DNA of 64,000 nucleotides from Chlamydiales bacterium (GTDB taxonomy: Bacteria; Chlamydiota; Chlamydiia; Chlamydiales; JAJFMA01). Below, piece after piece: positions 2,424 to 51,272 of this stretch (position 1 is its first letter; every line of letters begins with the position of its first letter). The position numbers and the translations under genes are program-made. The stretch is taken from contig JAUXSF010000033.1 in assembly GCA_030679955.1 (NCBI GenBank), forward strand, positions 80,789 to 144,788, in the 5' to 3' direction. A model generated the notes under the pieces. That model ran no database searches. It was not told the DNA's origin and was given only the letters and a program-made list of their open reading frames with translations.

Positions 2424-4055
2424 ATGCGGTTCTATCTTGCCTGCCTGGCAGTGATTTGTACTTTAAGCTGTTCTTTTAGCTATGCGGAGATAGATCCACC
2501 GGTTCTGTCGGTGGAGATGCCAATGCGTGACGGCGTGAAGTTGCCTACAGATCTTTATTTGCCGGAGGAGGGTGCGCAAAATCTTCCATGTATATTGATT
2601 CGCGCGCCGAATGGACGTTTGACTCATTGTAAAGCCTTCGCACCCTTGGCATTAAAGGGATATGTCGTAGCTATCCAGGATACGCGTAGCCGTATCGACA
2701 GTGAGGGTAAGACTATGCCCTATCTGGCTGATGGCTGGGGAACTCAGCAAGATGGCTATGATGCTGTACAGTGGCTAGCTAAGAGTCCCTATACTAATGG
2801 GAAAGTTGGCACATTGGGAGCTTCTGCCCAGGGTATTACACAATTGTTAATGGCGCCTTCTTGTCCGCCTAATCTTGTTTGTCAGCATATAGGCGTTGCG
2901 GCGTCCAGTATATTTGACCAAGGTATATTTGCCGGAGGGCAGCTGCGCAAGAATCAGGTTGAGCAGTGGTTAAACTATTATGCACCGCATCCTTCTGTCT
3001 TAAACGAAGTAGCCAACCAACCTTCTTATAACGATTTTTGGTCGCATTTTGATACCTGTAAGGTAGCTCATCGCGTCGAAGTACCTGCCATACATCATGG
3101 AGGGTGGTACGATACATTTTGTCAGGGAACGATAGACTCATTTTTATCGCGTCAGAAGAATGGCGGACCGGGTGCTCGTGGCAATCAGAAAATGATTATT
3201 GGCCCTTGGACACATTTTTGGCCGGAAAGCACCGATCTGGGAGATTATCCTATTCCTGTGGCGGGGCAGCAGGCTCCGGTTGACTTTTCCCCGGCTCGTT
3301 GGTTTGAATATTATCTTAAGGGTATTGAAAACGGCATAGAAGCAATACCTGCGGTTACCTACTATGTGATGGGGCCATTCGATGGAACACCATCCAGTGG
3401 TAATGTGTGGCGTACGGCCGAGACTTGGCCACCGGAAGCAACGCAGACTTCGTTATACCTAGAAGCCTCAGGGAAGTTAGTTGAGCAGCCTCCAGCTCAG
3501 GGATCGATTGATTTTTGCTACGATCCGGCTAATCCGTGTCCGACATTGGGTGGCCGTAACCTATTTCTCAAGGCCGGTCCTATGGATCAGAGACCTTTGG
3601 AGGAGCGTGAAGATGTCCTTGTCTTTACTTCTGAGCCCTTGAAGGGAGATACAGAAGTAACTGGTAGAATTACTGCTCAGGTCCTTTTCTCTACTAACGT
3701 CAAAGATACCGACGTGGTTGTTAGGCTTACGGATGTTTACCCTGATGGCACCAGTGTGTTAATTTCTGATGGTATCCGTAAGTTAAGTGACGTATTTCCA
3801 GAGGGCCATACGGTGGGTAAGCCGCGGGGACCTCGTTATATTGACGTAGATTTGTGGTCGACTAGCATGGTCTTTGCCAAAGGGCACCGCATTCGTGTAT
3901 CTATTACAGGTTCTAACTACCCACGTTTTGATCGCGCGACGAACCTTCCTAGGTATACGGTGGCTACCGAGCCTTTCCCAATCGCCAAAAATTCGGTTCA
4001 TGTTGGCGGTGTTAGGGGATCGAGGATCATTCTGCCTGTGGTTCGTAAGAGCTAG
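2424..4055 (+). CDS. secreted CocE/NonD-family (S15 X-Pro dipeptidyl-peptidase-like) alpha/beta hydrolase
   Basis: 543 aa. Signal peptide MRFYLACLAVICTLSCSFSYAE. Nucleophile-elbow-like GTLGASAQG. The length and C-terminal beta-rich domain are typical of the CocE/NonD family. Confidence 0.7.
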   Translation: MRFYLACLAVICTLSCSFSYAEIDPPVLSVEMPMRDGVKLPTDLYLPEEGAQNLPCILIRAPNGRLTHCKAFAPLALKGYVVAIQDTRSRIDSEGKTMPYLADGWGTQQDGYDAVQWLAKSPYTNGKVGTLGASAQGITQLLMAPSCPPNLVCQHIGVAASSIFDQGIFAGGQLRKNQVEQWLNYYAPHPSVLNEVANQPSYNDFWSHFDTCKVAHRVEVPAIHHGGWYDTFCQGTIDSFLSRQKNGGPGARGNQKMIIGPWTHFWPESTDLGDYPIPVAGQQAPVDFSPARWFEYYLKGIENGIEAIPAVTYYVMGPFDGTPSSGNVWRTAETWPPEATQTSLYLEASGKLVEQPPAQGSIDFCYDPANPCPTLGGRNLFLKAGPMDQRPLEEREDVLVFTSEPLKGDTEVTGRITAQVLFSTNVKDTDVVVRLTDVYPDGTSVLISDGIRKLSDVFPEGHTVGKPRGPRYIDVDLWSTSMVFAKGHRIRVSITGSNYPRFDRATNLPRYTVATEPFPIAKNSVHVGGVRGSRIILPVVRKS

Positions 4056-4059
4056 GACT

Positions 4060-4135
4060 TTTATCGCAAAGTCGCAGAGACGCCAAGGTAGAAATTTGGG
4101 GAAGTTCTTTGCGTCTTCGCGCCTTTGCGTTAAAA
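4060..4135. repeat. ACGCAAAGGCGC-family intergenic hairpin repeat (copy 1, inverted orientation)
   Basis: cgcaaag...gcagagacgc on the left. On the right ctttgcgtcttcgcgcctttgcgttaaaag, with gcgcctttgcgt at 4119-4130. The arms can pair. Confidence 0.7.
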
Positions 4136-4200
4136 GTCCTATCACCGATTGCTAAAAAAGGAAATGAGTGTTTTGATAGTCCAGAAGGGGATCTAACACT

Positions 4201-4890
4201 ATGAAGATTATCATTTTGGCTGCGGGATTGGGCAGTCGTCTTGGAGCTGAGGAAGGGCCAAAGGCGCTTGTTCCTCTCATTAATGGCAAAACCATCCTTG
4301 AACATCAGCTCGATAACTTGGCACGTTACGTCAAAATTAGTGATGTCAGGGTTGTCGTGGGCTATCAGGAGGAGAAGATTCGCGCGCATTTTCCGCATCT
4401 TGCCTTTGTCCAGAACCCTCATTTTCGCACAGAAAATACATCTAAAAGCTTGCTAAGAGCCCTGCAGGACATCGAGAATGAGGATGTTTTGTGGCTCAAT
4501 GGCGATGTAGTTTTCAACCACTCTGTGATTGCCAAGTTATTGCTTAATCGGCGCAATTCGATGGTTGTCAATATCTCTATTGTTGGTGAAGAGGAAGTTA
4601 AGTACCGTTTAGACGGTGTGGGTTGTATTGTGGAGGTTTCTAAGACGGTGGATGATGCACCAGGAGAGGCGGTGGGCATTAATTACTTCACCGCTGCAGA
4701 TCTTAATCTGCTTAAAGAAGCATTGTCAGAGTGCAAACCCGACGATTATTTCGAGAAGGGTATTCAACTTTGTTTAGATGCTGCGGTCGACGTGTGGGCA
4801 GTTGAGGTTGTGCCGGAAGATACGGTGGAAATTGATTTCCCCGAAGATCTTGAAAAAGCTAATCGACTGATAAAGACCTGGGGCGAGTAA
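4201..4890 (+). CDS. NTP-transferase family protein, probable CDP-alcohol-forming cytidylyltransferase (LicC/MobA-like)
   Basis: 229 aa. N-terminal MKIIILAAGLGSRLG nucleotide-binding loop, NP.F..ENTSKSL and NGDVVF motifs. Confidence 0.75.
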   Translation: MKIIILAAGLGSRLGAEEGPKALVPLINGKTILEHQLDNLARYVKISDVRVVVGYQEEKIRAHFPHLAFVQNPHFRTENTSKSLLRALQDIENEDVLWLNGDVVFNHSVIAKLLLNRRNSMVVNISIVGEEEVKYRLDGVGCIVEVSKTVDDAPGEAVGINYFTAADLNLLKEALSECKPDDYFEKGIQLCLDAAVDVWAVEVVPEDTVEIDFPEDLEKANRLIKTWGE

Positions 4891-5959
4891 CGGCCGCCAA
4901 AACTTCTTGTTTAACAGTTTCAAACGAGCGCTCAGAGCCGAATGTATAGTGATATACTTCGTCGCGAATGTCTTTGAAATGATGGTCAGAAGGTAGACTC
5001 TGTTCGATCACATCATAGATCGACTCAAAATTATTCTCATCCACGACCACACCACAACGAGATAGGTATGGCTGTCGTTGCCCACGAGTTAGGAAGAACA
5101 TAGGCTTTCTAAACGTTAACCAGTCATAGCCTACGGCTGAACGATCGCCAATATAAATATCGCATTTGGCCGCCAGTGGGTAGATGAGGGGGAATTCCGT
5201 TAACATCACCACATTGGGTTCATTTTCGTATTTGCTGATGATTTCATAGACATCGATCATGTGATCGTGATCGTGTTCTAGGTTAGGGTGTAGCTTTACA
5301 ATAAGGTTATAGTGTTTAGGAAGACCTGACAGGATAGCTTTAGCGGCTTGGAAAAATGATGTGGAGTCCTCGCTATCCCTCCAGGTGGGTGCATATAGGA
5401 TAGTTGGTTGCTGTTTAGCAAAGCGGCTGAAAACGTCGGTGTGGGTTACAGCATCAAATGCTTCGCGATGCTCCATGTAATAGCGATGGCGTAAATTGCC
5501 TGTAATGACATAGTTAGGTAGTACTGCTTCGGGGCGTCTGATGACAATAAGATCCAGCATGTTTTTCCCGTAAGCGAGAGTAATGTCTTGCTCTAGGCAG
5601 TGCTCAAACCAAAATCCTTTATCAGAAAATCCGTGGGGGCAGTGAACAATGCGCAGCTGTTTATTTAGGGCCTTTTCGCTCTGTTCGAACTTAGCGCGCA
5701 GTTGTTTTTTATCCCACATTTCGGAGACGAAAAGTACATCATAGTGCTCGACAATATAATGAGGGGTGAATGCTTGCCAATCATGCAGTTCGACTTTTAG
5801 ATCCGGATAAAGCCTCTGACTTTGTTCAAAATGGTCGATATCTGTGAAAATTAATGGGATTTGCATGGTCACTGCGACAGCCGCTAGATGATCGGTGAAA
5901 TGTGTGTAGCCCATAGGATTTAGGGCGGCGCCGATTATTTGCTTAGATGAAGTCATCAT
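4859..5959 (-). CDS. CDP-glycerol glycerophosphotransferase (TagB/TagF)-family protein
   Basis: Motif ILYAPTWRD plus KLHPNLEHDHDH and IYIGDRSAVGYDW, resembling the TagF family (YAPTWR, HP, D.SS). The start is trimmed to the ATG at 5959, which overlaps the mcsB stop as ATGA. The 5960-6073 extension lies inside mcsB. Confidence 0.7.
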   Translation of the reverse strand: MMTSSKQIIGAALNPMGYTHFTDHLAAVAVTMQIPLIFTDIDHFEQSQRLYPDLKVELHDWQAFTPHYIVEHYDVLFVSEMWDKKQLRAKFEQSEKALNKQLRIVHCPHGFSDKGFWFEHCLEQDITLAYGKNMLDLIVIRRPEAVLPNYVITGNLRHRYYMEHREAFDAVTHTDVFSRFAKQQPTILYAPTWRDSEDSTSFFQAAKAILSGLPKHYNLIVKLHPNLEHDHDHMIDVYEIISKYENEPNVVMLTEFPLIYPLAAKCDIYIGDRSAVGYDWLTFRKPMFFLTRGQRQPYLSRCGVVVDENNFESIYDVIEQSLPSDHHFKDIRDEVYHYTFGSERSFETVKQEVLAAVTRPRSLSVD

Positions 5960-7026
5960 ACCGCAAGTTGTAGCCCTTCCAGGCCTTTTTGCAGGAATAT
6001 CGCTCGCTGCCTTGCTAACTCTTCCTGAGGTGTATTTTCTGCCACTTGAAAAAGCAGGTGTGCGCGGCGACAATTGAAGAACAGCTCATTGAGCTTGCTA
6101 TGAGTAATTCCTGAAATCCAATTAACGTCCAAGCCTAGTTTTAATAAGCTTAGAGCGTTAAGAGCTTCAAATGTTTCGATTTGATAAGAGTGTTTAAGTA
6201 GGCCATAGGCGCGGCCAACTTGATCTCTAATTTCTGATCTTGGCTGTGTTTGCAGGCGGGCGCGAAGGCCTTTTTCCTCGACTAGCAGATGAGTAGCGAA
6301 CGTTCTCACTTCGCTAAGAACTTTCTCTTCGGTGATTCCTAGCGTAAAGGCGTTGGAGATCATTACGACGTTACCCACAAAATCGGAGGACTCACTGCCG
6401 GTTAGACCTGCGATGTTGATAAACTCTGTTTTATGCTTTTCTACAATGGTCTCAAGCTGTTTGGTAAGAATGATGCCTGGTACTTGAAGGAAGGCGCGCG
6501 CTAAAAACCCGGTTCCAGCATGTGCGGGATTAGTGGTGAGGAAACCAAAAGTTGAAGAGAAGGCGTAATTGAGTGTTTTACCGACATCGGTTTCTAGTTT
6601 AACGAGGCTTTCAAACGACTTCTCAGGTTCGTCACCACAATCCATGCGGGTAAGTTCCAGATGGTCTTCCATATTGATTACGGCAAGGGTGGTGCCCTTT
6701 TTGTCGATGATAAAGCCTTCGCCGCGTTGAGCGTGGACGAATGGGTGAGTGGCTAAGAAGTGCTCAAAAAGCAATTCTTTGTCTCGAGCCGATGTTTCAT
6801 CCATCTTGAAGAGCTGAGGCTCTGAAAGGCCTTCGTAGTCCATTAGCTGTGTGCTGATAAGACCCATTATTTGCTTGCGGCTATCATCGTCAAGCTTACT
6901 AGGGAAATTGAATTTTTCCAGATTACGCAACAGCGTAAGCGTGGAGCAAATCCATATTGGATGGCATTGCGAGGCTCCGACGTTGGCCTGAGATAAAATA
7001 GCGGAGACTTTACTGTGGTCCGTCAT
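5956..7026 (-). CDS. mcsB: protein arginine kinase McsB (ATP:guanido phosphotransferase)
   Basis: 356 aa. Contains INMEDHLEL (the N.EDHL motif) and TTNPAHAGTGF (the CP.N.GTG-like motif) of guanidino kinases. Confidence 0.9.
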   Translation of the reverse strand: MTDHSKVSAILSQANVGASQCHPIWICSTLTLLRNLEKFNFPSKLDDDSRKQIMGLISTQLMDYEGLSEPQLFKMDETSARDKELLFEHFLATHPFVHAQRGEGFIIDKKGTTLAVINMEDHLELTRMDCGDEPEKSFESLVKLETDVGKTLNYAFSSTFGFLTTNPAHAGTGFLARAFLQVPGIILTKQLETIVEKHKTEFINIAGLTGSESSDFVGNVVMISNAFTLGITEEKVLSEVRTFATHLLVEEKGLRARLQTQPRSEIRDQVGRAYGLLKHSYQIETFEALNALSLLKLGLDVNWISGITHSKLNELFFNCRRAHLLFQVAENTPQEELARQRAIFLQKGLEGLQLAV

Positions 7027-7549
7027 TGGACTGCTCCGTCAATTTCTTAATTTGGTCGCGTAGCCAGGCTGACTGCTCGTAATCTTCACGGTTCAGCGTA
7101 TCGGCAAGAGCTTGGTTAAGTGCTTGCAGGCGTGCGGCGGGGCTAATTTCAGCCGTCTCACCGCGAGAGCGTCCTACGTGCAAGCTTGTATCTTTGGTGA
7201 TGTGACCTATTGACATAGGCACTTTATCATTGACCACCAGTTCGTTAATAATCACATCAGCAAAAGTTAGGTAGCATTGACTACATCCTAGCGGCATGCC
7301 AGATCGGACATGTGTCACAGAGGTGCCGCAGTTGCTGCATTTTTCCTGTGCTGCCAAAAATTCATCGTGGGGGTGTTCGTGCGAGGTCGTGCCATGCAGG
7401 CGGCGTTCTAGTTGCGGACACGAGCTGCACATTACGGTGTGCGAAATCGATCCTTGCTCGATCACAGTATAGAGCGTAGCGATCGCTTTACGGCATTCAC
7501 TGCACTCTAAGGGTCTTTCAGCTGATTTTTCTGGGGGTTCTTCCGTCAT
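7010..7549 (-). CDS. mcsA: McsA-like activator (Cys-rich zinc-finger modules plus C-terminal UVR motif)
   Basis: 179 aa. Paired CxxC motifs (CSECRK, CSSCPQ, CSNCG, CSQCY) and the UVR-like YEQSAWLRDQIKKL. Overlaps the mcsB start by 17 nt. Confidence 0.75.
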   Translation of the reverse strand: MTEEPPEKSAERPLECSECRKAIATLYTVIEQGSISHTVMCSSCPQLERRLHGTTSHEHPHDEFLAAQEKCSNCGTSVTHVRSGMPLGCSQCYLTFADVIINELVVNDKVPMSIGHITKDTSLHVGRSRGETAEISPAARLQALNQALADTLNREDYEQSAWLRDQIKKLTEQSNDGPQ

Positions 7550-7596
7550 AGCCGGAATATAGAAAAATTTACCTAAAATGTAACGAAAATAGTTTT

Positions 7597-9516
7597 TTAG
7601 ATAACCTTACGAAGTTTTTTTACTGCGGCTGCCATGAGTCCTTCACCTAGGTAGCGGGAGTCGTCATGTCGACGCATCTTCATTAGCGCGAAGTTATAGC
7701 GGCGCCATTGCTTACCCTCAGGTGGGTCATTAACTAGCGCAGCTGCCCAATCAGCAGGTCCCCACTCAGGGGGCATAGATTTGTAGTGCTTTTTCAAAAT
7801 CTTGAACATGATTGCACTGGTAGTTGAGTTGGCCATGCCCGACCCTTCTATAGCATCCCAGTTATTCACCTCGGCTTCAAGTCGTGACTTCAGCTCCTCG
7901 TTAAACTGCTTTGTGCTGACACGATTTTTCCCTTGAACGGTCTTAATTAGCAGTTTGGTTGCCATTGAGACTGGTAGTTGCACAGCGAGACTCGTGAGGC
8001 CCACAATAGCGCCGGCTGAGATTAACGGGATGCCGGAGCCCCCTGCTGCGGTTGTAATTAAGCCGCTGGTTGTTAGTATAGTTGAAACAATAGTAAGTCC
8101 CTCAGCACCTACTCGCAGAGACTCCAAAGTTGTCTTGATCACTGTTTTTTGCTGAATGTAGGGGAGTAACGTACTATCAAGGGCTTGTGAATTTTGAAAT
8201 AGGATGTCGTTAGCTACAACACGGTCTCGCACCAAATCTAAGGAGAAATGTTGATTCGAAACGGCTTCTATAACCGCCTCACGATGGCCTTTAATTTCGA
8301 GTTCCAAATTTGCGCGATCTGCTTTTTTTTGCGCGACAATCGATTTGTCTTTTATGCCATTACGCAAGTCTCGGTTAATGACATTGATTGCGCTGCGTTT
8401 TGCGACAATTTGCTCGTTCGCGTGCTGAATAGATTCCCTTAATGCCGGATAGGCATCGAGTTGCCGCATATTATGCACATCCGCAAAGCACTCTGTGTCC
8501 TTCTTTAGGGTCACCAGCTCTTTATTTCTTAGGCCAATCGATATCTTTAAATTTTGTACGCAGGTTCTTATGTTCTTATAGCATGAGCTAAGGCCCCTCG
8601 CGGAAAGAAATAGGCCTATTGGAATTGTCACTACGCTGGTAGCTAAGCCAACCATTCCCATTACCTGTGATGTTCCCTGTAGCACTAATGGGATAACTGT
8701 ACTTAGAGCCTGAATGAACCTGCTGTATGAATAGATGCACTTTAGGCCATTTGATAGAGTTTGTTGAATGCCTATGGAAATCGGATCCCGCCCTAGTTCT
8801 TCTTTTAAGATCGTTAATCCATCGTTCAGAGTCTTATGTTCGACTAGCAGAGTTATCCTTTCTGCGGGGTTTCTAATGGCGCCTGACCGTAGGATGTCAT
8901 CGATCTCTACTAAGCGATTTTCAGCTAGATTGACTAGTTCTTTCATCTGCTTTTCTTCGCCGATGTGCTTGGATGTGTCACGGCTCCAAAAATACATCCA
9001 TCCGGTATCTAAACCCATCTGTAGAAACATTAGAGGGTTAGGGTAAGGACCCAATTGCACAGATGCGCCACGCCCTTCAACTCCGTACTTGAAAAACTCT
9101 TCGAGCGATTTTCCGGCTATTTCTTTTCCCTTGGCAGTAACCCTACCTACTCGCCCCGGAGCTATTTGTTGATGGAGTGTATCGATCTCATTCTTTTTGG
9201 CGCGAATATCGCGTTCGAGGCTCTGTAGTTGTATAAAAGAGGCCATGCGATCCCCTATGGGTCGAACGCTCGCCCCACTGCCATGCACTACTCTCGATGT
9301 CTTTTTACTTTTAACTGGTTTATTATGAACAACTTGACGCAGTACTTTGACCTGCGTCTTCATGCTCTCTAAGTCAGATTGAAGGCCTTCAATCTGACTT
9401 TTAATCACCTGGCGATCTGCTCGTTTCTGCTCTTTAGCTACTGGGTCTTTGGGAGGTCTAAACTGCTCCCACCTGTTTCTTATCCCGCCAAAGTAGCCTG
9501 CATCTCCAACACTCAT
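7597..9516 (-). CDS. hypothetical coiled-coil protein with two bilobed hydrophobic domains (Inc-like / T3SS substrate candidate)
   Basis: 639 aa with no signal peptide. Hydrophobic stretches LSTVIPLVLQGTSQVMGMVGLATSVVTIPIGLFLSA and GLTIVSTILTTSGLITTAAGGSGIPLISAGAIVGLTSLAV. Heptad-rich segments elsewhere. Confidence 0.45.
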   Translation of the reverse strand: MSVGDAGYFGGIRNRWEQFRPPKDPVAKEQKRADRQVIKSQIEGLQSDLESMKTQVKVLRQVVHNKPVKSKKTSRVVHGSGASVRPIGDRMASFIQLQSLERDIRAKKNEIDTLHQQIAPGRVGRVTAKGKEIAGKSLEEFFKYGVEGRGASVQLGPYPNPLMFLQMGLDTGWMYFWSRDTSKHIGEEKQMKELVNLAENRLVEIDDILRSGAIRNPAERITLLVEHKTLNDGLTILKEELGRDPISIGIQQTLSNGLKCIYSYSRFIQALSTVIPLVLQGTSQVMGMVGLATSVVTIPIGLFLSARGLSSCYKNIRTCVQNLKISIGLRNKELVTLKKDTECFADVHNMRQLDAYPALRESIQHANEQIVAKRSAINVINRDLRNGIKDKSIVAQKKADRANLELEIKGHREAVIEAVSNQHFSLDLVRDRVVANDILFQNSQALDSTLLPYIQQKTVIKTTLESLRVGAEGLTIVSTILTTSGLITTAAGGSGIPLISAGAIVGLTSLAVQLPVSMATKLLIKTVQGKNRVSTKQFNEELKSRLEAEVNNWDAIEGSGMANSTTSAIMFKILKKHYKSMPPEWGPADWAAALVNDPPEGKQWRRYNFALMKMRRHDDSRYLGEGLMAAAVKKLRKVI

Positions 9517-9574
9517 AGATAGCCTTTTCTAAAAACGATCTATGATTATTATAACAATTAGTTAAATTATTTCC

Positions 9575-10639
9575 TTAACTTGTTTTTAAAGTAGAGTTGT
9601 CTATGACAAAGCGGTATTTAACATCACTTTTAAGCATGCGTTCATAAGCTTCGTTAATTTTCTGGATAGGAATAAGTTCAATCTCAGACAGAATGTGGTG
9701 TTGAGCGCAGAAATCCAGCATTTCTTGTGTTTCTTTTATGCCGCCGATTAGAGATCCTCCAAGCTTTCTACGCTTAAAAATTAGGTTGGTGACGTTTGGG
9801 CTAGGGTGAGGGTGGTCGGGAGCTCCAACGAGGCACAGCGTGCCATCTAGCTTAAGAAGCTCAAGGTAAGTATCGAGGTTATGCTGAGCTGATACCGTAT
9901 CAATAATAAAGTCTAGGCTATTGGCGAATTTTTTTACATCTTGTTGATTTTTAGAGACAATCGCTTCATCAGCGCCTAGTTTTTTGGCATCTTGCAGCTT
10001 GCTTTCCGACGTGGTGAAAACGACGACATGCGCGCCCATGGCGTGAGCAAGTTTAATGGCCATATGTCCTAAACCGCCAATACCTACAACGCCGACTCTG
10101 CTGCCCTTGCCCACTTTCCAATGGCGCAGTGGTGAATAGGTTGTGATGCCAGCGCAGAGGAGGGGAGCGACACCAGGCAGATCTGCTTCGCTAAATTCTT
10201 TCGGGACCCTTAGGACATATTTGTCATCAACTACAATTTGCGAGGAATATCCACCATAGGTGATCGTGCCGTCGATCTTGTCCTTACTATTGTAAGTGAA
10301 AGTCATTTCATTCTCGCAATATTGCTCGAGATGTTCCTTACAGCTTGAACATTCGCGGCAAGAGTCGACCAAACATCCCACAGCCGCAAAATCGCCCACC
10401 TTAAAATCCTTAACTTCTTTGCCGACTTCTGTAACACGACCGACAATTTCATGACCTGGAACGACAGGGTAAATAGTACCCTTCCACTCGTTCTTCACTT
10501 GGTGAAGGTCAGAATGGCATACGCCACAGTAGAGAATTTCAATCTTAACATCGTGAGGTCGCAGATCTCTGCGATCGAATGAAAAAGGAGCCAAGGGAGC
10601 TTTTTCACTCGTTGCTGCATAAGCTAGTGTTTTTGCCAT
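9575..10639 (-). CDS. zinc-dependent NAD(P)-alcohol dehydrogenase (YahK/cinnamyl-ADH-like)
   Basis: 354 aa. GVCHSDLH catalytic zinc motif, the structural zinc cluster CRECSSCKEHLEQYC, and Rossmann motif GVVGIGGLGH. Confidence 0.9.
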   Translation of the reverse strand: MAKTLAYAATSEKAPLAPFSFDRRDLRPHDVKIEILYCGVCHSDLHQVKNEWKGTIYPVVPGHEIVGRVTEVGKEVKDFKVGDFAAVGCLVDSCRECSSCKEHLEQYCENEMTFTYNSKDKIDGTITYGGYSSQIVVDDKYVLRVPKEFSEADLPGVAPLLCAGITTYSPLRHWKVGKGSRVGVVGIGGLGHMAIKLAHAMGAHVVVFTTSESKLQDAKKLGADEAIVSKNQQDVKKFANSLDFIIDTVSAQHNLDTYLELLKLDGTLCLVGAPDHPHPSPNVTNLIFKRRKLGGSLIGGIKETQEMLDFCAQHHILSEIELIPIQKINEAYERMLKSDVKYRFVIDNSTLKTS

Positions 10640-10720: not shown

Positions 10721-13027
10721 TTAGCCGCCTAAAGCAAGCTCTGAAGGTCTAATAGACAAGCCGAACCATTGATTTTCTCTAGCGTGAGCGAGGATATCAA
10801 TCTCTGCCTCATCCCTAGCTCCCTTAGCATAGCCAGCTAGAATCGCCTTGCGCTGCTCGATGACCAGAGGGAATATGAACCTATTATGCATTTCTTTTCG
10901 GAAATCAGCGATGGTCTGGCTTGGATTTTTGACGCTGCTAAGTTTGAAGTTGGGGTCTGCGCAAAGGTTATAGGCAGTAAAACATGTCCATGTTCCACAT
11001 TGATAGCCGTCGCGCTGAACACTGCTTGATTTGTCACTAGCCCTAAAGAATTTGCCGAATCTCTTTGATAGGGTATTGGCATGTTCCTTGACTACCCTTG
11101 GGACGGCTTTTGCACCCATGCTGTCATAATGTTCGATGGTTCCCTTTTCTACATCGACGATGGCGACTGACCAGTGGCTTCTTCCATGATTAATAGGTAT
11201 GGGAAACCTTGCCAATGTCTTATGACCATTGACGGTGATTGTGCGGGCATTTTCATGGGTCTCGGTTAGGAATGCTAACATCAGATTTACACAGTCGTCG
11301 TTCAACCATTTCTGCCAGTTTTCATCCATAGCGCCGTTGGTAACTAGCGCGGCCTCGACATCACGCCGACCCTCTGCGGTTAATCCGGGGGAATTCCTTA
11401 AACGGCCTGTAACTGGGTCAAGTAATGTTGACCAATGGTGAGTGTTCAGAAAATCTAAATCTGCCTTAACGTCATTAACACGTTGTTCTACCTCAAAAGC
11501 CATAGCTTGCTCAAAGAAAGGGGGCTCTTCAGAGACCACGCGTTCATTGGTGAGGCGTGCGATTACCCACGACTCAATGTTAGCCAAATAGCTATCAATT
11601 GCCTCCAGTCGTGCACTTCTAACCCATTGGGCGCTATTCATTACATTACGTTCAACGGCGCTGCGCCATTCTTGCAGGGTGTCTTGCAGGCCTATCACAT
11701 CATCGATGGACTGTTCTGCGCTGGTCACCCAGTTTTCAATCTGATCAGAAAGGAGTCGCATAGCATCTTCGCCATAGGGTTTGATGTACTGTCTTTCGGA
11801 AACGACCGGCGCTCTCGCCGGTCTGGAAGATTGCAAGGCTCGACGCCACTCCTGGATATGTGAAGCCGATCTAGCAGAAAAATAAATGATGTTAGGGCGA
11901 TCTACATAGTCCAAGAAGCGTGTCATTGCTAGCTTATTGCCCGCGATAGCGGCCTCTTCATAGGCGGAAATGATTTCGCCGGCATTAATGCGAGCGCTTT
12001 GTGCCTGTAAGAGTTCGGCCTTTTCTATTAGCAAATCTGCGGTAGCTAAATCGGGGTCTTTTCTTAATAACTCTAGAGCCGCTTTAGGATCGGCCTTACA
12101 GCCTCTTCCGTATCGCAGGAAACGTACCACATTCAATTTAGCCTCTTGGTTACCCAATTCTGTGGCTTTCAAGAAGAATTGTAGGCTCTGAGCAAGATTA
12201 TGCCCCTTGGAGAATCGCTGGCCCGCTTCATACAGAGACTGGCTTGCATCGGGCAACAATTGCAGGGCGTAAGGGCTATCTAAGCTAGCTTTTAACAGCC
12301 AATCGTTTGGTTCCGAGGGGTGGTGCTTGGCAAAGCCTTCTGATAGGGCGATCATAGCGCCCAGATTCCCTTGGTTAGCTAATTTTGTAAGCGTGGGAAT
12401 ATCATTTGTTTTGCGAGCTTGGTAGTACGCGGCGATGGGATAACCGAGGTCGCTGAAACGTCTCCAAAATTGATCTAACGCGAGATCTTTGCCGAATATA
12501 CTCTTTGCGTGATCGTCTAATGTTTTAAGAGTTTCGGGATCGCCCAGGTCCAAGTCTCTGGAAGCGGTGAGCAACGCGTAGGCGGAATCAACAAAAGCTT
12601 GTTTATCGTAGAGTTCCTTGGGGTTGCCGACCGACGAGAAGAATTTGAACAGTTCATCGTAGACAGCATGTGTTAGATCTGCCGCAGATCCGTTCACATC
12701 ACCATGCCCCCATAGAGCCCTTCCTATAGAGGTTGTTTTGTTATAGTAAGAGGTTGAGAGGCCTTGGACGCGGTCCTTTAGCTCAATTCTGCTTTTAATA
12801 TCGTTGTAGCGGACCTTCAGCCTTTTATCCTGCTCAACCAGCTTGGTAATGATTTTAAAACTGTCACTAAGTTTGTTGGATCCTATCAGGCGGTCCCAGC
12901 AGCGACCCCATAGGCCGCGTTTTGCAATAACGACATTTGAGGAATAGTTTGTGCGTTGAATAACGAACTGATGTCCATTATTTAGTTTCTGTAGTGAATT
13001 TACTATTTTTTGTAGTCTATTAATCAT
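10721..13027 (-). CDS. Sel1/TPR-repeat protein with C-terminal Ulp1-like (peptidase C48, CE clan) protease domain; candidate deubiquitinase/deSUMOylase effector
   Basis: 768 aa. Catalytic signature in canonical order and spacing: HWSVAIVD (His), EHYDSMG (Asp), QRDGYQCGTW (Gln..Cys). Sel1-like repeats occur in residues about 200-330 (LANQGNLGAMIALSEGF..., ELGNQEAKLNVVRFLRYGRGCKADPKAALELL). Confidence 0.8.
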   Translation of the reverse strand: MINRLQKIVNSLQKLNNGHQFVIQRTNYSSNVVIAKRGLWGRCWDRLIGSNKLSDSFKIITKLVEQDKRLKVRYNDIKSRIELKDRVQGLSTSYYNKTTSIGRALWGHGDVNGSAADLTHAVYDELFKFFSSVGNPKELYDKQAFVDSAYALLTASRDLDLGDPETLKTLDDHAKSIFGKDLALDQFWRRFSDLGYPIAAYYQARKTNDIPTLTKLANQGNLGAMIALSEGFAKHHPSEPNDWLLKASLDSPYALQLLPDASQSLYEAGQRFSKGHNLAQSLQFFLKATELGNQEAKLNVVRFLRYGRGCKADPKAALELLRKDPDLATADLLIEKAELLQAQSARINAGEIISAYEEAAIAGNKLAMTRFLDYVDRPNIIYFSARSASHIQEWRRALQSSRPARAPVVSERQYIKPYGEDAMRLLSDQIENWVTSAEQSIDDVIGLQDTLQEWRSAVERNVMNSAQWVRSARLEAIDSYLANIESWVIARLTNERVVSEEPPFFEQAMAFEVEQRVNDVKADLDFLNTHHWSTLLDPVTGRLRNSPGLTAEGRRDVEAALVTNGAMDENWQKWLNDDCVNLMLAFLTETHENARTITVNGHKTLARFPIPINHGRSHWSVAIVDVEKGTIEHYDSMGAKAVPRVVKEHANTLSKRFGKFFRASDKSSSVQRDGYQCGTWTCFTAYNLCADPNFKLSSVKNPSQTIADFRKEMHNRFIFPLVIEQRKAILAGYAKGARDEAEIDILAHARENQWFGLSIRPSELALGG

Positions 13028-20239: not shown

Positions 20240-23176
20240 CTAGCAAGACATGACGTACGCGATGCGTTTGGTGAGGGATAGATTGTTGTAAAACTCGATG
20301 TCCTGCACCTTTTCGCCAGCAATAGTGACAGCGATGCGGCTAAATTGATGACAAAGGCTTTCCGCCTCTGCGCTTGTTGGAGGAGCGGAGTGCACCGCCA
20401 GGATCACATCGTATTTCTGCGATAAGCTATCAAGTAAATCACGGAAACGTTGGCTGTGCAACAGTTCATGCCCATGGACAGAGGTGCCGCCAGCTTCAAT
20501 GGAATCATATCCATCCAGAGTTGAAATTGTAGGCTTGGCGGCACTGCCTTCTAATACTTGAAGGAGTCCTGCCATTTGGGTCGAGGACTCTTGATCAAAC
20601 GATAGTCTTAGACGTAGTACCTTAAGGCCCTTTTTGGCAAGCAGAATGGCTAAGGATCTACTGTAGTCAACTCCACATCCAGTTAATAGCAGGACTTTTT
20701 TGTCTTGTGGGGCATTTACATCGCGGAACAAGTGTGCTGCCAAACGTCTAAGGGTGGTTAGTTGCTTCGGGTTTTCAAAGGGTCTATATTTGGCTTCTGA
20801 TTTACGCGGTGGCACATAGCCTGCGATATATTGCTTGGCTAGTCTTAGATTCGTTTCGGAAACCTCGATACCCCTCCTCAGTCCCATAGCCAGTGTGTAA
20901 ACGGCACCAAAACCGGCCCCGAGAATAAGTCCTAGCATTGCAAACATATGTAGCATAGGCCGCTTTGGAAGGACTGCTGGTATAGCTAAATCTAGTGGTG
21001 ACGATTGTATCGTTTCCAGGTGGTGCGAAATATTTTTGGTCTCAACTAGCTTGGTAACTTCTTCTACTATGGAGCCGTTGATTTTTGCCTGATGCTTAAT
21101 CATTTGTTCTGCGCCCCATTTTAAGGGCAGAGACGACATCTGCTGGTGGATATCTTTTAGGCACTGGTTTAAAAACCCGCGCTGTTCTTTAAGTTGGTCG
21201 ATATGAGAGCTTGTGTAGTCTTGAAGGTGTTTTTCTAACACACTGACTTGTTGGTGCGTCAGATCCAGCATCGCTCCCTGGATAGAATCAATTTTCTGCC
21301 CCAAAAAGTCTTCTCGTAGTCGTAATAACTGATTGGCTTGCTGGAGGTGGTATAACAGGAAGGCACGGCAATTATTCAGTTCTTCCTTAATACGATCCTG
21401 CTCTTTTGGGCTTCTTATGGTGATATCCTTAAGACTCATCGATAACACGCTGTAGCGTTCGATTAGTCCGTGGCTCACCGGATCTTTTAGGAGGCCGCTT
21501 AGGCTGCTAATTTCGAATGTTGGATCCGCAACTTGATCAATAATAAAGCCGTTTTGGCGGATTTCCCCTTGAGTGTCATTCAAGCGATAGTTGAGGTCCA
21601 GATAGATCGTGTTTGCAGTAGGCAGATCCATGCCTTGAAGCTGATCATCAACATGCTGTTGTTGTAAAGCTAGGCGCTCTTCCATTAAACGTTGATGCAC
21701 TTTCGACAAGCGTAGGTAATGATTTAGGTACCCTTTGAAGTGCGCCTTATGCTCATCCCAGGACTCATGGTTTGGACTTGAGTCAGACTGAAGTAGCTTG
21801 TTGTACCATAGCTTTAGCATGGGGCTGGAGTTATGAGAGAGCTCTTCTAAAAGAGTGGCCACGTCATCAGACTCTGCAAATTGATATAGATGGTTCATTC
21901 GGTCAATATCGTTATTTACCGCAAGGAGATTGGTGACTTGGCTCTCAAACTGTTCTTCAAATTGATTGGGCGCTGGTGAAGAGGTTTTTGACAGCGCCAG
22001 CACTAAACGGTCGCGACGTTGCTTGAGCTCATTTATTGTGGAGATGGTCTGACGAACCAGCTCGGGCAAGTCTTTAGAAGCTCCTAGGGTGTTTAGATAG
22101 CTTTCGGCATCGCGGTTTTTTTCCAGCCGACTAAGCTCTAAATCGATAGTGATGAGAGACTGTCGCAGTTTGGCTTTTTGCCCTTCTAAGACCGCAAGTT
22201 CCTTTTCTGAATCAATAATGCCTGAATTGGGAAGATCTTTAGAGAGCTGGCAGGCGTAGTCTACGATTAGTTTTTCCAGATTTTGATTGGACTCAAATCG
22301 TCTACGTTCTAGGTAGTCTAATTGCGCTCCCGCTACTTGCTTGTGATCTTCACGAAGGTAGCGTTGATAACCTTCCATCAAATCATTTAGCAACTCACTG
22401 GCTAGGAGGCGGTTGGAATGCGCTAAGGTCAACTTTAAGACCTTGGGGCTCTTTTCATCAGGTTTGATTGTTAGTCGATTTGTGAAGGTCTTTGCCGTGA
22501 ATTCTAAAGTGTCTAAATGAACGGCAAAGGACTTTCCAGATACGGATTTGTCATCCAATCGTTCAACTTGAAAGGAGTAATTATCCGTTTGGATAGGGCT
22601 TCCTAAATGGGCATGAGCGATCTCAGTCCCGAACTGGTCCTTAACTATGAAGGAGCTTTCGTCCGTAAATTCCAGCGTTAATTTTAGTGGGATCTCAGAC
22701 TGATAATCTATCTGTGTGAGTTTCAGCGTTGGTTTGGCATCAGTAAAGAGAGGCTCGCGTTGATGGGAAAAATAGGCCCGCTCGATCAAAAGATTGTCGC
22801 GAATGCAGGAGATTAAAGGTTGCGAATCTCTATTAATTTCATAGACTTGTCCCTGAAGGTTGTGTCGCTGGATCAGGGGCGCCCAGAGGCGGCGTGACTT
22901 CATGAGTGGAATGGTGTTTTCTTGCTGACCGTTAAGATTTCCAGTAAGCATGCCTAAAAAGCCGGACATTCCCCCAGAGCTATTGCCTTGCAGGCCTTTT
23001 TCTTGAAAGGAAGAGTCTGAAATATAAACGATCGGTTGAGTCAGTGCCCAAAAGGATAGTACGGATGCTCCTACCAATCCAGACAGGCCAATCAACCATT
23101 TTTTCCGACCTAGAAGACTGAATATATCTGACAGACTGACGGGTCGAGTTGAGGGAGAGTTGTCGTCTGCAACCAT
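20240..23176 (-). CDS. polysaccharide co-polymerase (PCP-2a/Wzc-like) with a degenerate C-terminal BY-kinase-like domain
   Basis: 978 aa. Wzz-type N-terminus (LSDIFSLLGRKKWLIGLSGLVGASVLSFWAL), a very long coiled-coil periplasmic region, and a second TM (MFAMLGLILGAGFGAVYTLAMGL). The C-terminal P-loop-fold region has Walker A as TGCGVDYS, A' as RLSFD and B as VHSAPP. There is no terminal Tyr cluster. Confidence 0.75.
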   Translation of the reverse strand: MVADDNSPSTRPVSLSDIFSLLGRKKWLIGLSGLVGASVLSFWALTQPIVYISDSSFQEKGLQGNSSGGMSGFLGMLTGNLNGQQENTIPLMKSRRLWAPLIQRHNLQGQVYEINRDSQPLISCIRDNLLIERAYFSHQREPLFTDAKPTLKLTQIDYQSEIPLKLTLEFTDESSFIVKDQFGTEIAHAHLGSPIQTDNYSFQVERLDDKSVSGKSFAVHLDTLEFTAKTFTNRLTIKPDEKSPKVLKLTLAHSNRLLASELLNDLMEGYQRYLREDHKQVAGAQLDYLERRRFESNQNLEKLIVDYACQLSKDLPNSGIIDSEKELAVLEGQKAKLRQSLITIDLELSRLEKNRDAESYLNTLGASKDLPELVRQTISTINELKQRRDRLVLALSKTSSPAPNQFEEQFESQVTNLLAVNNDIDRMNHLYQFAESDDVATLLEELSHNSSPMLKLWYNKLLQSDSSPNHESWDEHKAHFKGYLNHYLRLSKVHQRLMEERLALQQQHVDDQLQGMDLPTANTIYLDLNYRLNDTQGEIRQNGFIIDQVADPTFEISSLSGLLKDPVSHGLIERYSVLSMSLKDITIRSPKEQDRIKEELNNCRAFLLYHLQQANQLLRLREDFLGQKIDSIQGAMLDLTHQQVSVLEKHLQDYTSSHIDQLKEQRGFLNQCLKDIHQQMSSLPLKWGAEQMIKHQAKINGSIVEEVTKLVETKNISHHLETIQSSPLDLAIPAVLPKRPMLHMFAMLGLILGAGFGAVYTLAMGLRRGIEVSETNLRLAKQYIAGYVPPRKSEAKYRPFENPKQLTTLRRLAAHLFRDVNAPQDKKVLLLTGCGVDYSRSLAILLAKKGLKVLRLRLSFDQESSTQMAGLLQVLEGSAAKPTISTLDGYDSIEAGGTSVHGHELLHSQRFRDLLDSLSQKYDVILAVHSAPPTSAEAESLCHQFSRIAVTIAGEKVQDIEFYNNLSLTKRIAYVMSC

Positions 23177-23186
23177 GATATGTGTC

Positions 23187-24239
23187 CTAGTTCATGAAAA
23201 TTTTATAACATCCCATCCCGGTTTGGAAGCAGTTCATCGACGGCAATAGCTGGCTGATCCAGCGGTTCCAGCGCGTAATAGGAGTTTCTACAACATACAC
23301 CGTATCGCCCGGCATAAGCAAGAGACTTTCATTAGGAAGTTGTGTGATATGACACCAATTTAATTCGTAAACCTTGGGGCAAATAGTGCCTCCACGGATT
23401 ACCTGGATGCGATGTCGGTCTCCTGTATAAGGAATGCCACCCGCAGCCACTAATGCTTCACGCAAGCTGGTGAAACCATAATAGAGGTTTACGGCTTTTG
23501 GACATCCAACCTCTCCCATTACCGTGACAACCGCATCGCGCGCATCTGCTATGAAAATTTTATCGCCAGGACGCATAACAATGTTATTGCACATATCGCC
23601 TTCGTTTAGGAGACGGTGCAGGTCGATCGCTAAGGGGCATCCGCAGCGTGTCACGTAGCTCATAAAGAGGTTGGCATGGGTAGGAACGCGTGCTTGTGAG
23701 AGCACATCAAAGAGGCGTATTTTGCCGTTCACAGGGATACTAGGCATGGAAACTAGGCCAGCCAGCTCAACTTTGTGAGAGGGTCTTTCTTTGTAATTGA
23801 TGAAGACTTCAATGCCTTTCACATGCTGCTGGTACTTACAGGAAAGGGCATCATGAGCTTCTTGCAACGTTAAACCTGCTACGATTACAGGTTCCATATC
23901 CGGAAGATCAATGCGTCCTTGATATACTCTAAAGCCTACATATTTGTTGATGGTCTCGATTGCTTCCATCAAATCTTTGCGTGAAGGGTGGTAGACCGCT
24001 ACGCTTAGGACATCGTCCTCGCAGATGACATCTTCAAACTCGTCCATAGCACAGTCTGGAACTTCCATCAGCTCATGGCCAGTCATTTCGACGATCGAGA
24101 GTTTGCCTTGGCGAATCTTATAGCTGTCCGTTACGAATTCATCGACATGATGAAGACAGTAACAGCACTCCATGTTTGATCCGCAAGAGCCAAAGAGGAG
24201 GGGCAGGGCACCTAATAAAATAAGACTATAGTAACGCAA
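23187..24239 (-). CDS. outer-membrane polysaccharide export lipoprotein (Wza-like; Poly_export plus SLBB domains)
   Basis: 350 aa. Lipobox LLFGSCGS. Contains GRIDLPDMEPVIVAGLTLQEAHDAL (Poly_export pattern). Repeated PGDKIFI and PGDTVYV motifs are typical of SLBB domains. Confidence 0.75.
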   Translation of the reverse strand: MRYYSLILLGALPLLFGSCGSNMECCYCLHHVDEFVTDSYKIRQGKLSIVEMTGHELMEVPDCAMDEFEDVICEDDVLSVAVYHPSRKDLMEAIETINKYVGFRVYQGRIDLPDMEPVIVAGLTLQEAHDALSCKYQQHVKGIEVFINYKERPSHKVELAGLVSMPSIPVNGKIRLFDVLSQARVPTHANLFMSYVTRCGCPLAIDLHRLLNEGDMCNNIVMRPGDKIFIADARDAVVTVMGEVGCPKAVNLYYGFTSLREALVAAGGIPYTGDRHRIQVIRGGTICPKVYELNWCHITQLPNESLLLMPGDTVYVVETPITRWNRWISQLLPSMNCFQTGMGCYKIFMN

Positions 24240-44559: not shown

Positions 44560-45036
44560 ATGAGTGCAACACCTAAGCGTAAACTTTGCTGGAATTGTGA
44601 CGGAAGCGTTCCTTTGGCTGTAGATCAATGCACCTATTGTGGAGCTAGCCTCAGAGAAGGGGCTTCTCCGCAACCGGTGAAGAAAGTTAGAGACGACCTA
44701 GCGCCTCCCTATGCCATGCATGGTGGGCAGCGTGATTCTTCAGATATTCCTCAGCCACCTTTTAATGTGCTGCAAAAAGAAGCAGCAAAGCCTGTGGAAG
44801 AGGAAGAAGCTACCGAAGAAACCACAGCTGGCGCCAATAAGGAGTTATCTCCTTTGATGTTTCTGCTTGGTGGATCTGTTTTTTTCCTGTTTGGCTTGGT
44901 ACTGAAGCTATTTTCTCAAAACGGCGAATTTACACTACAGTGGAGCAGTGACTACTGGTATGTTTATCTTTTTGGCGGTATTGCCCTTCTTATTTTTGGA
45001 TGCAGAAGCCTCAAGTATGTCGAAGATAGTGACTGA
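44560..45036 (+). CDS. zinc-ribbon membrane protein (hypothetical)
   Basis: 158 aa. N-terminal CWNCDG..(10)..CTYCG zinc ribbon, an acidic linker, then two C-terminal TM helices. Confidence 0.5.
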   Translation: MSATPKRKLCWNCDGSVPLAVDQCTYCGASLREGASPQPVKKVRDDLAPPYAMHGGQRDSSDIPQPPFNVLQKEAAKPVEEEEATEETTAGANKELSPLMFLLGGSVFFLFGLVLKLFSQNGEFTLQWSSDYWYVYLFGGIALLIFGCRSLKYVEDSD

Positions 45037-45046
45037 GGAAACGAAA

Positions 45047-45928: not shown

Positions 45929-45999
45929 GTGGACGTAGTGGACTGAGTGGACGTAGTGGACAAGAAAATCACTCGTCCGCTGCGTCCACCCAGTCCACT
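45922..45999. repeat. AGTGGAC word-repeat hairpin between convergent genes
   Basis: taagtggacgtagtggactgagtggacgtagtggac (four direct copies) is followed by the inverted cgtccgctgcgtccacccagtccact. It overlaps both stop codons. Confidence 0.85.
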
Positions 46000-47365: not shown

Positions 47366-47465
47366 TGCGTAAATGATAGAGCTACCTGTTATTAGTGCAA
47401 AGTCATTTTTAGTGCGCTTTGAAATCAAATTTTGCTAGAATGCCGCATCCAAAAGGTAGTGGTTT

Positions 47466-51260: not shown

Positions 51261-51272
51261 GCTTAATACCTA

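Follow-up and report, generated by a model that had tools for sequence, protein, structure and literature searches.

A TagB/TagF-family gene attached to the mcsAB operon in environmental chlamydiae points to an undescribed CDP-alcohol envelope pathway

Gene organization at the mcsAB locus

The DNA analysed here is a 64,000 nt stretch (the window) of contig JAUXSF010000033.1, positions 80,789 to 144,788 of the forward strand, from the Chlamydiales bacterium assembly GCA_030679955.1. It contains mcsA and mcsB, the genes of a protein-arginine kinase system, followed by a gene for a TagB/TagF-family protein (the TagF-like gene). The three genes are arranged head to tail on the minus strand, and on the plus strand a gene for a cytidylyltransferase, preceded by pepX, converges on them. 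In the list below, CDP is cytidine diphosphate and ORF is open reading frame.

7010-7549, minus strand: mcsA, first cistron, activator of the protein-arginine kinase (179 aa)
5956-7026, minus strand: mcsB, second cistron, protein-arginine kinase (356 aa)
4859-5959, minus strand: predicted TagB/TagF-family (Glyphos_transf) GT-B phosphotransferase of the chlamydial 'C-type' subfamily, third cistron (366 aa)
4201-4890, plus strand: COG1213-type (LicC/PntC/IPCT-like) cytidylyltransferase, probable source of a CDP-activated alcohol (229 aa)
2424-4055, plus strand: S15 (CocE/NonD) hydrolase, PepX-like, whose N-terminus resembles a signal; a conserved partner encoded upstream of the cytidylyltransferase
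5956-5959, minus strand: ATGA junction shared by the end of mcsB and the start of the TagF-like gene, as seen in the sequence itself
4859-4890: overlap of the convergent 3' coding ends of the TagF-like and cytidylyltransferase genes (32 nt, from the ORF coordinates)

This layout agrees with the first-pass annotation, which had described a single minus-strand unit of mcsA, mcsB and a gene with the TagB/TagF hallmark ILYAPTWRD, an ATG of the third gene overlapping the mcsB stop, and a LicC/MobA-like cytidylyltransferase gene converging on the unit with a 32 nt overlap. The minus-strand junction reads ...gcggtATGAtgact, in which the ATG occupies 5959-5957 and the TGA of mcsB 5958-5956, so that the two coding sequences share 4 nt; those of mcsA and mcsB share 17 nt. 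The ORF finder places the start of the TagF-like gene further out, at a TTG (6073); the ATG at 5959 (MMTSSKQ...) is favoured by alignment with 20 homologues and gives the protein of 366 aa. In a close relative (L167), where the proteins of the unit are ~91-93% identical to those of the window, the 32 nt convergent overlap is retained with one nucleotide changed. Elsewhere it measures 16 nt (L003) or 23 nt (L006), or gives way to gaps of 41-287 nt, and it derives from a C-terminal tail of the TagF-like ORF that is not conserved. Given this tail and the variable size across species, the 3' overlap is incidental. Ratios of nonsynonymous to synonymous substitution rates (dN/dS) against L167 indicate strong purifying selection on mcsA (0.029), mcsB (0.039), the TagF-like gene (0.046) and the cytidylyltransferase gene (0.094), and with values of 0.03-0.09 throughout, none of the genes of the unit is a decaying remnant.

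McsA matches the NCBIfam McsA model at E = 5.4e-11, under that model's cut-off, and its translation carries four CxxC pairs and a C-terminal UVR-like EDYEQSAWLRDQIKKL. McsB is matched by Pfam ATP-gua_Ptrans (PF00217; E = 6e-34, 118 bits) and by the NCBIfam protein arginine kinase model NF002191 (E = 8e-106, 354 bits, slightly below the cut-off of 381), and a McsB_C domain is on record for the Parachlamydia orthologue. In nearly every related locus, mcsA precedes mcsB.

The TagF-like protein

The product of the third cistron is matched by Pfam Glyphos_transf (PF04464) with 51 bits against a cut-off of 22.1 (E = 1.4e-13), the match being limited to residues 183-307, or profile positions 191-308 of 367; the ILYAPTWRD motif lies at residues 187-195. 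Three motifs, YAPTW, K-x-H-P and GD-x-S-x-x-GYD, are invariant in an alignment of 21 homologues. When a profile built from 21 members of the family (profile A1) was searched against PDB sequences, only two solved proteins were matched, the TagF-like capsule polymerase Cps3D and the ribitol-phosphate polymerase TarL, and both matches fall in the donor-binding half. In the hidden Markov model (HMM) alignment, the KMHP motif of TarL (H433) is aligned to the KLHP motif of the family (H224), and H224 is invariant in the 21 sequences. H433 of TarL touches the alpha-phosphate of CDP-ribitol and is essential, and the equivalent residue of TagF is H584 (PMC10901376). The AlphaFold2 model of the TagF-like protein (pLDDT 88.8, pTM 0.89) has a GT-B fold that fills the chain from residue 10, and a Foldseek search aligned it with TagF (3l7j) at a template-modelling (TM) score of 0.62 and E = 6e-11. 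The assignment of the gene to the TagB/TagF family, made at first from the hallmark motif, is thus borne out by the Glyphos_transf score, by the Cps3D and TarL matches and by the structural likeness to TagF.

TagF-family polymerases have an additional N-terminal domain before the GT-B fold (PMC10901376), and the 366 aa protein has none. With the GT-B fold filling its whole chain, it is closer to the primase-type enzymes TagB and TarF. An invariant P108-H109-G110-x-S-D-K motif follows a beta-strand and lies 115 residues ahead of H224. In the TagF family, the base histidine of the N-subdomain (TagF H444, TarL H300) follows a tryptophan; in the P-H-G of the TagF-like protein this position is held by proline.

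Conservation of the linkage to mcsAB

In all 15 of the closest genome loci, mcsB lies directly upstream of the TagF-like gene and on the same strand, and mcsA is also present wherever the contig extends far enough. The mcsA-mcsB-TagF-like triad is found as well in Parachlamydia acanthamoebae and in L167. Sixteen more orthologous loci have -20 to +13 nt between the mcsB stop and the TagF-like start, apart from one locus at +70 nt, and in 16 metagenome loci the distance is ~3 to 61 nt; the ATGA overlap itself recurs in L001, L002, L011 and L101. A single overlap of this kind is commonplace, and it is the conservation of the tight junction, not one ATGA, that exceeds chance. The flanks of the triad vary: upstream of mcsA there is sometimes frr, and in the window there are three inserted genes, while downstream of the TagF-like gene is the cytidylyltransferase gene in about half of the loci and one of seven different, unrelated genes in the rest.

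A metagenome scan for mcsB returned 58 loci with at least 300 nt of downstream sequence, and the TagF-like gene comes next after mcsB in 16 of these and not in the other 42. In a tree of McsB proteins, all 32 linked loci fall within one clade, and the linkage is seen in none of the 27 loci of other clades; the TagF-like gene was therefore captured next to mcsAB once and mostly kept. Its wiring to the arginine-kinase genes, which the first-pass annotation had regarded as an oddity, is a clade-wide feature and not peculiar to the window.

CDP-ribitol synthases and tandem TagF-like genes in other lineages

In the clades without the linkage, the commonest same-strand family after mcsB is a protein of 435-460 aa with an IspD/TarI-like N-terminal domain and a C-terminal short-chain dehydrogenase (SDR) domain (for example, L150 6348-7664, with IspD and adh_short domains). 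This fusion protein scores 176.6 against a cut-off of 166 with the NCBIfam model for D-ribitol-5-phosphate cytidylyltransferase (NF001183) and remains under the cut-off of the ispD model (TIGR00453). Its best PDB matches are TarI proteins, and it is named 'ribitol-5-phosphate 2-dehydrogenase / D-ribitol-5-phosphate cytidylyltransferase' or 'bifunctional cytidylyltransferase/SDR' in the source records. Its architecture is that of the Haemophilus CDP-ribitol synthase Bcs1. Of the 42 unlinked loci, 14 have this gene downstream of mcsB, nine of them with a gap of at most 190 nt, and two complete genomes have it after mcsA-mcsB with one to four genes in between. It is also found beside TagF-like genes: the synthase gene is followed by a basal C-type TagF-like gene and two glycosyltransferase-like genes in L026, a glycosyltransferase gene is followed by a TagF-like gene and the synthase gene in L050, and in L061 the synthase gene is close to TagF-like and glycosyltransferase genes. 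Since the synthase both follows mcsB and adjoins TagF-like genes, the tie between mcsAB and CDP-polyol genes is recurrent and not accidental. The slot after mcsB holds two consecutive steps of one pathway in different lineages, which is not chance adjacency. Because the Bcs1/TarIJ-type synthase occupies these positions in relatives, ribitol-phosphate is at least as likely a unit as glycerol-phosphate.

One of the complete genomes (L165, 7577-11442) carries, after the CDP-ribitol synthase gene, transposases, an AbiEi/AbiEii toxin-antitoxin pair and a terminase fragment, and the mcsAB neighbourhood appears to be an insertion hotspot.

A protein search returned 539 homologues of the TagF-like protein, nearly all named ones being from Parachlamydiaceae, and a scan of species-representative genomes gave 80 loci with TagF-like genes. 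In a neighbour-joining tree of 132 extracted proteins there are three groups: A and B, the members of tandem pairs, and C, to which the gene of the window belongs. Basal C-type genes also occur within tandems (L017, L028, L047 and L058). The tandem pair lies in a block conserved in the majority of 65 loci, which belong to Simkaniaceae, Rhabdochlamydiaceae and other groups (about 35-49 of L016-L080). On one side of the block and on one strand are genes for a GT4 glycosyltransferase and mutY; on the other strand are a small ORF (167-183 aa, no Pfam match) and then TagF-like A and B; and on the far side mreC and an aminotransferase gene converge on these. Two examples are:

L033, 3249-10972: tandem block
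L018, 2889-11856: tandem block

The small ORF and the tandem TagF-like pair look like an undescribed operon. The small ORF was considered as a McsA-like protein and this was rejected, there being no similarity. Several metagenome-assembled genomes (MAGs) labelled as Verrucomicrobia or Acidobacteria (L018-L022, L024, L036, L045, L054 and L079) show the same synteny of mutY, small ORF, TagF-like pair and mreC, and also carry the chlamydial-type CDP-ribitol synthase. Either these genomes may have been given the wrong taxonomic labels, or the block may have a wider distribution in the Planctomycetes-Verrucomicrobia-Chlamydiae (PVC) group.

The convergent cytidylyltransferase

The protein encoded at 4201-4890 is matched by Pfam NTP_transf_3 (PF12804; E = 6e-20, 72 bits), so that the profiles corresponding to both proposed activities, Glyphos_transf and NTP_transf_3, are matched at this locus. 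Its best PDB sequence matches are PntC-AEPT and LicC, and with the AlphaFold2 model (pLDDT 95) the top 19 Foldseek matches are PntC, LicC and IPCT structures (TM 0.81-0.85), ahead of sugar-1-phosphate enzymes. The COG1213 group, to which these belong, also holds Cj1416 and CpgD (PMC12275187). Source annotations of the homologues disagree, giving phosphocholine cytidylyltransferase, L-glutamine-phosphate cytidylyltransferase and choline kinase. The Caulobacter pair CpgD/CpgA was considered as an analogue and set aside; CpgD is a COG1213 enzyme, but CpgA is of the PgsA type and not TagF-like.

The cytidylyltransferase gene adjoins the TagF-like gene in at least 12 loci. In L101 it is inverted, and has become a co-directional fourth cistron that overlaps the TagF-like gene (ATGA), pepX being gone. 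Together with L004 and L085, this locus has the cytidylyltransferase gene without pepX, an arrangement seen only where it lies beside the TagF-like gene. In L104, L105 and L118, pepX converges directly on mcsB, and both the cytidylyltransferase and TagF-like genes are missing. The presence of the cytidylyltransferase gene tracks the TagF-like gene better than it tracks pepX. The PepX-like protein has Pfam Peptidase_S15 and PepX_C domains; this hydrolase, with its signal-like N-terminus, is encoded in close packing with a cytosolic cytidylyltransferase.

Proposed function and alternative explanations

We favour, with a little better than even confidence, a function in which the transferase of the window takes a polyol- or alcohol-phosphate from a CDP-activated donor and passes it to an acceptor in the envelope, its gene serving as the mcsAB-coupled third cistron for developmental remodelling of the envelope. 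The product of 4859-5959 would be a stand-alone, GT-B-only TagB/TagF member of a Chlamydiota-specific subfamily, and the acceptor is most likely a glycan or a lipid-linked component of the envelope. Because the extra N-terminal domain of the polymerases is missing, the enzyme probably adds one or a few units, like TagB/TarF, and not a long chain. In relatives, the donor is most likely CDP-ribitol, provided by the Bcs1/TarIJ-type synthase. In the clade of the window the adjacent LicC-like cytidylyltransferase probably makes the donor, and this enzyme may stand in for the CDP-ribitol synthase; that it supplies the donor there is somewhat more probable than the opposite. As a translationally coupled third cistron, the transferase would be produced whenever the arginine-kinase system is. 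In C. trachomatis, overexpression of ClpC raises mcsA 3.7-fold and mcsB 4-fold, together with late genes (PMC11708050), and by extension the likely purpose would be remodelling of the envelope around the transition from reticulate to elementary body. Such a pathway could decorate a surface glycan. The window also encodes Wzm/Wzt(TagH-like), two glycosyltransferase family 2 (GT2), WavE-like and Wza-like outer-membrane polysaccharide export (OPX) proteins, and this set (ABC-2 permease, TagH/Wzt-like ATPase, GT2, WavE, OPX) indicates that a transporter-dependent glycan pathway exists that could provide the acceptor. A more far-reaching version, in which McsAB, together with ClpC, acts directly on the TagF-like and CDP-ribitol enzymes and controls them by phosphorylation or degradation, and a teichoic-acid-like ribitol- or alcohol-phosphate envelope polymer is made only at a defined stage of elementary-body building, seems to us distinctly unlikely.

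Several observations weigh against the favoured function. Chlamydiaceae retain mcsAB without the TagF-like gene (PMC10128030), and 14 unlinked loci lie inside the linked McsB clade, so McsAB does not depend on this gene. A promoter and terminator scan of 4000-9800 gave counts at or below the shuffled expectation, and a weak promoter-like site upstream of mcsA (7584-7556) counts as no evidence. There is no copy of the CDP-ribitol synthase gene within the window, and for the catalytic base of the transferase there is only a candidate, H109 of the invariant PHGxSDK, in the half that matches no solved structure by sequence. The loss of linkage in the 14 loci would also suit a historical or neutral association, in which a TagF-like gene (elsewhere a CDP-ribitol synthase gene) landed beside mcsAB or came with it, for example in one Gram-positive transfer, and shares its promoter to no purpose, persisting only since compact intracellular genomes rearrange rarely. 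McsAB, ClpC, Tar/Tag and LicC-type genes are all typical of Firmicutes, 4 nt overlaps are common in bacteria, and in B. subtilis ispD follows ctsR-mcsA-mcsB-clpC at a distance of a few genes. The mcsAB operon of C. trachomatis consists of two genes, has tRNAs on its flanks and has been suggested to derive from horizontal acquisition (PMC10128030). However, the genes on either side of the triad change from locus to locus while the mcsB-TagF-like junction stays tight, the slot after mcsB is taken in different lineages by two enzymes of one pathway whose genes are mutually adjacent elsewhere, and the dN/dS of the TagF-like gene shows it to be under strong selection; we consider a purposeless linkage unlikely. 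A possibility with a better claim, though still a tentative one, is that the cytidylyltransferase is not the partner of the TagF-like enzyme and instead acts alongside the exported PepX-like hydrolase or belongs to another pathway, the overlap then being the junction of two unrelated blocks, rpsT-pepX-NTP and mcsA-mcsB-tagF. An rpsT-pepX-cytidylyltransferase block is indeed conserved, with pepX and the cytidylyltransferase gene co-directional wherever they are paired. In the closest genome (L083, same contig as L001) this block is 11 kb from the TagF-like gene, and there pepX overlaps the start of the cytidylyltransferase gene by 4 nt (6373-8687), a tighter arrangement than that with the TagF-like gene. 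The pair also lies away from the TagF-like gene in L084, a radical S-adenosylmethionine (SAM) gene takes the convergent position in Parachlamydia acanthamoebae, and the size of the 3' overlap is not conserved. Set against these are the overlapping fourth cistron of L101, where pepX is gone, the retention of the cytidylyltransferase gene without pepX in L004 and L085, and the retention of pepX without either of the other two genes in L104, L105 and L118; the signal-like N-terminus of PepX, moreover, makes it unlikely to act on cytosolic nucleotides. The two-gene CDP-alcohol pathway drawn in the first-pass annotation is thus plausible, as the cytidylyltransferase gene tracks the TagF-like gene, and not secure, as it also belongs to the rpsT-pepX block.

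The chemistry of the enzymes can also be read differently. The TagF-like protein might be a GT-B enzyme of another kind, for example a glycosyltransferase, or an enzyme that resembles an epimerase or uses cytidine monophosphate (CMP)-sugars, and not a CDP-alcohol phosphotransferase. Only residues 183-307 are covered by the Pfam match, and a PDB sequence search with a profile of residues 1-178 produced noise only, with no TagF-like structure aligned, leaving the N-terminal half without a sequence relative among solved structures. In the Foldseek search, uridine diphosphate N-acetylglucosamine (UDP-GlcNAc) 2-epimerases rank level with TagF, the top matches having E = 5e-12, and there is a weak Pfam Epimerase_2 match under the cut-off. 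The searches of PDB sequences, by contrast, give only TagF-like enzymes, the donor-side motifs and the alpha-phosphate histidine are invariant, and members of the family are encoded directly beside the CDP-ribitol synthase, all of which makes a different chemistry quite improbable. Far more remote is a biochemical coupling, in which the P-N chemistry of McsB feeds the pathway, and the LicC/Cj1416-like enzyme would cytidylylate a compound of the phospho-arginine type that the TagF-like enzyme then transfers, in the manner of the C. jejuni phosphoramidate capsule. It would draw on the four-gene overlapping operon of L101, on the name 'L-glutamine-phosphate cytidylyltransferase' that some sources give to homologues of the cytidylyltransferase, and on the inclusion in COG1213 of Cj1416, a promiscuous enzyme with an N-phosphoryl substrate (PMC12275187). 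Those annotations, however, are automatic and inconsistent, mcsAB is pan-chlamydial and mostly lacks these neighbours, and the CDP-ribitol synthase that is its neighbour in other lineages needs no kinase. In addition, chlamydial ClpCP degrades arginine-phosphorylated casein, which fits canonical protein tagging (PMC10128030).

Other genes in the window

A glycan assembly and export cluster is found at 57487-63320, with genes for a WavE-like protein, two GT2 proteins, an ABC-2 permease and an ATPase with a Wzt_C domain, the best NCBIfam match of which is the teichoic-acid export subunit TagH, under its cut-off. This cluster could provide both acceptor and export route for the TagF-like enzyme. 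The minus strand at 20240-24239 encodes a Wza/OPX-like export protein of the outer membrane, with Poly_export, SLBB and Wza_C domains, and after it a 978 aa protein without a Pfam match. At 44948-50242 there are a weak glycerophosphodiester phosphodiesterase (GDPD)-family gene and a gene for a 476 aa protein with a haloacid dehalogenase (HAD)-like region, then four overlapping plus-strand genes for a HAD phosphatase of the beta-phosphoglucomutase family, two paralogous sugar-phosphate nucleotidyltransferases and an unknown protein; these may represent a separate nucleotide-sugar pathway. The suggestion that the GDPD gene shares in the chemistry of the TagF-like enzyme is not upheld: the gene (44948-45928) has a Pfam match of only 1.9e-7, lies 39 kb away beyond the SUF and type III secretion clusters, and is never near the unit in other loci.

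Closer to the unit, 47 nt away from mcsA on its upstream side, the minus strand at 7597-9516 encodes a 639 aa protein without a Pfam match. Two long hydrophobic stretches in this protein recall the inclusion-membrane proteins of chlamydiae; the related loci contain no homologue of it, and in L167 it seems to be broken into fragments. The zinc-dependent alcohol dehydrogenase gene at 9575-10639 was considered as a TarJ-like reductase and rejected, its best NCBIfam match being the aldehyde reductase Ahr; it is a singleton among the loci and is fragmented in L167. Between frr and mcsA, at 10721-13027 on the minus strand, is the gene for an effector-like 768 aa protein with an Ulp1/C48 cysteine-peptidase domain, and its absence from L167 indicates a recent insertion or deletion. 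Further away are a toxin-like cassette comprising an 1835 aa rearrangement hotspot (RHS)-repeat protein (51836-57343, minus strand) and then two small ORFs without Pfam matches (50712-51830), and four consecutive ORFs of 355-542 aa, also without Pfam matches, between the SUF operon and the type III secretion genes (29492-35472).

Novelty and comparison with known systems

The chlamydial envelope is a long-standing puzzle, with its cryptic peptidoglycan, truncated lipopolysaccharide and disulfide-linked outer-membrane complex, and to our knowledge no teichoic-acid-type chemistry is known in chlamydiae. A search of the literature library at hand found nothing on Tar/Tag-type genes in chlamydiae or on their attachment to mcsAB. 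While the protein families themselves are already known, the occurrence of a Tar/Tag-type gene set across environmental chlamydiae and its repeated physical attachment to the mcsAB operon are new. The phylum-wide set identified here comprises TagF-like transferases, a Bcs1-type CDP-ribitol synthase and a LicC-like cytidylyltransferase, and its genes are repeatedly found beside mcsAB, an operon now suspected of driving chlamydial differentiation through ClpC. The set suggests that these chlamydiae have an envelope pathway not yet described, the expression of which would be tied to that of a key developmental regulator. If this is true, elementary bodies of cultivable Parachlamydia and Protochlamydia would carry a polyol-phosphate decoration, its synthesis timed with mcsAB, and the linkage offers a new handle on the regulatory targets of McsAB. 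The enzymes are absent from host cells and from Chlamydiaceae, which makes them possible lineage markers or targets.

With the teichoic-acid enzymes TagB, TagF, TarF and TarL (TagF 3L7I-M, TarL 8VA1), the protein of the window shares the GT-B fold, the alpha-phosphate histidine and the donor-side motifs YAPTW(R), K-x-H-P and D-x-S-S-like, and its length is typical of the GT-B-only TagB and TarF. It differs from them in its acceptor-side N-terminal half, which has no detectable sequence similarity to theirs and where the W-H motif of the base is replaced by the invariant P-H-G. No teichoic acid is known from the host, an obligate intracellular Gram-negative bacterium, and the gene is part of an mcsAB operon, not of a tag/tar cluster. 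A TagF-like domain in a Gram-negative bacterium is also seen in Bcs3 of H. influenzae type b, encoded with Bcs1, and in Actinobacillus Cps3D (8QOY). As in those systems, chlamydial relatives pair the TagF-like gene with a cytidylyltransferase/SDR gene of Bcs1 architecture and with glycosyltransferase genes, and genes for an ATP-binding cassette (ABC) transporter and OPX export are present in the same window. Bcs3 and Cps3D, however, are large multidomain polymerases of kps-type capsule loci, whereas the protein of the window is a single domain of 366 aa without a fused glycosyltransferase or tetratricopeptide repeat (TPR) domain, and is encoded apart from the export genes.

The use of a TarI-type enzyme (in the relatives) and a LicC-type enzyme (in the window) recalls the pneumococcal lic/tar genes (TarI, TarJ and LicC), which serve one phospho-alcohol-decorated glycopolymer. 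In pneumococcus, phosphocholine is transferred by LicD-family enzymes and not by TagF-like ones; no choline kinase or choline transporter was seen in the window. The chlamydial LicC-like enzyme has the fold, the size and the N-terminal G-x-G-x-R-L nucleotide loop of COG1213 members (LicC, PntC, IPCT/IMPCT, Cj1416 and CpgD), and is only ~20% identical to any characterised one, and its substrate is not readable from sequence. Finally, the mcsAB part of the unit resembles both the Firmicutes operon ctsR-mcsA-mcsB-clpC and mcsAB of C. trachomatis (CT676/CT675), with four CxxC pairs and a UVR-like motif in McsA, a guanido-kinase domain in McsB and overlapping mcsA and mcsB genes, and, as in other chlamydiae, frr and pyrH are nearby. 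In contrast to the Firmicutes operon, the unit of the window is without ctsR and clpC, and it adds a third cistron for an envelope pathway, an arrangement unreported for Firmicutes or Chlamydiaceae.

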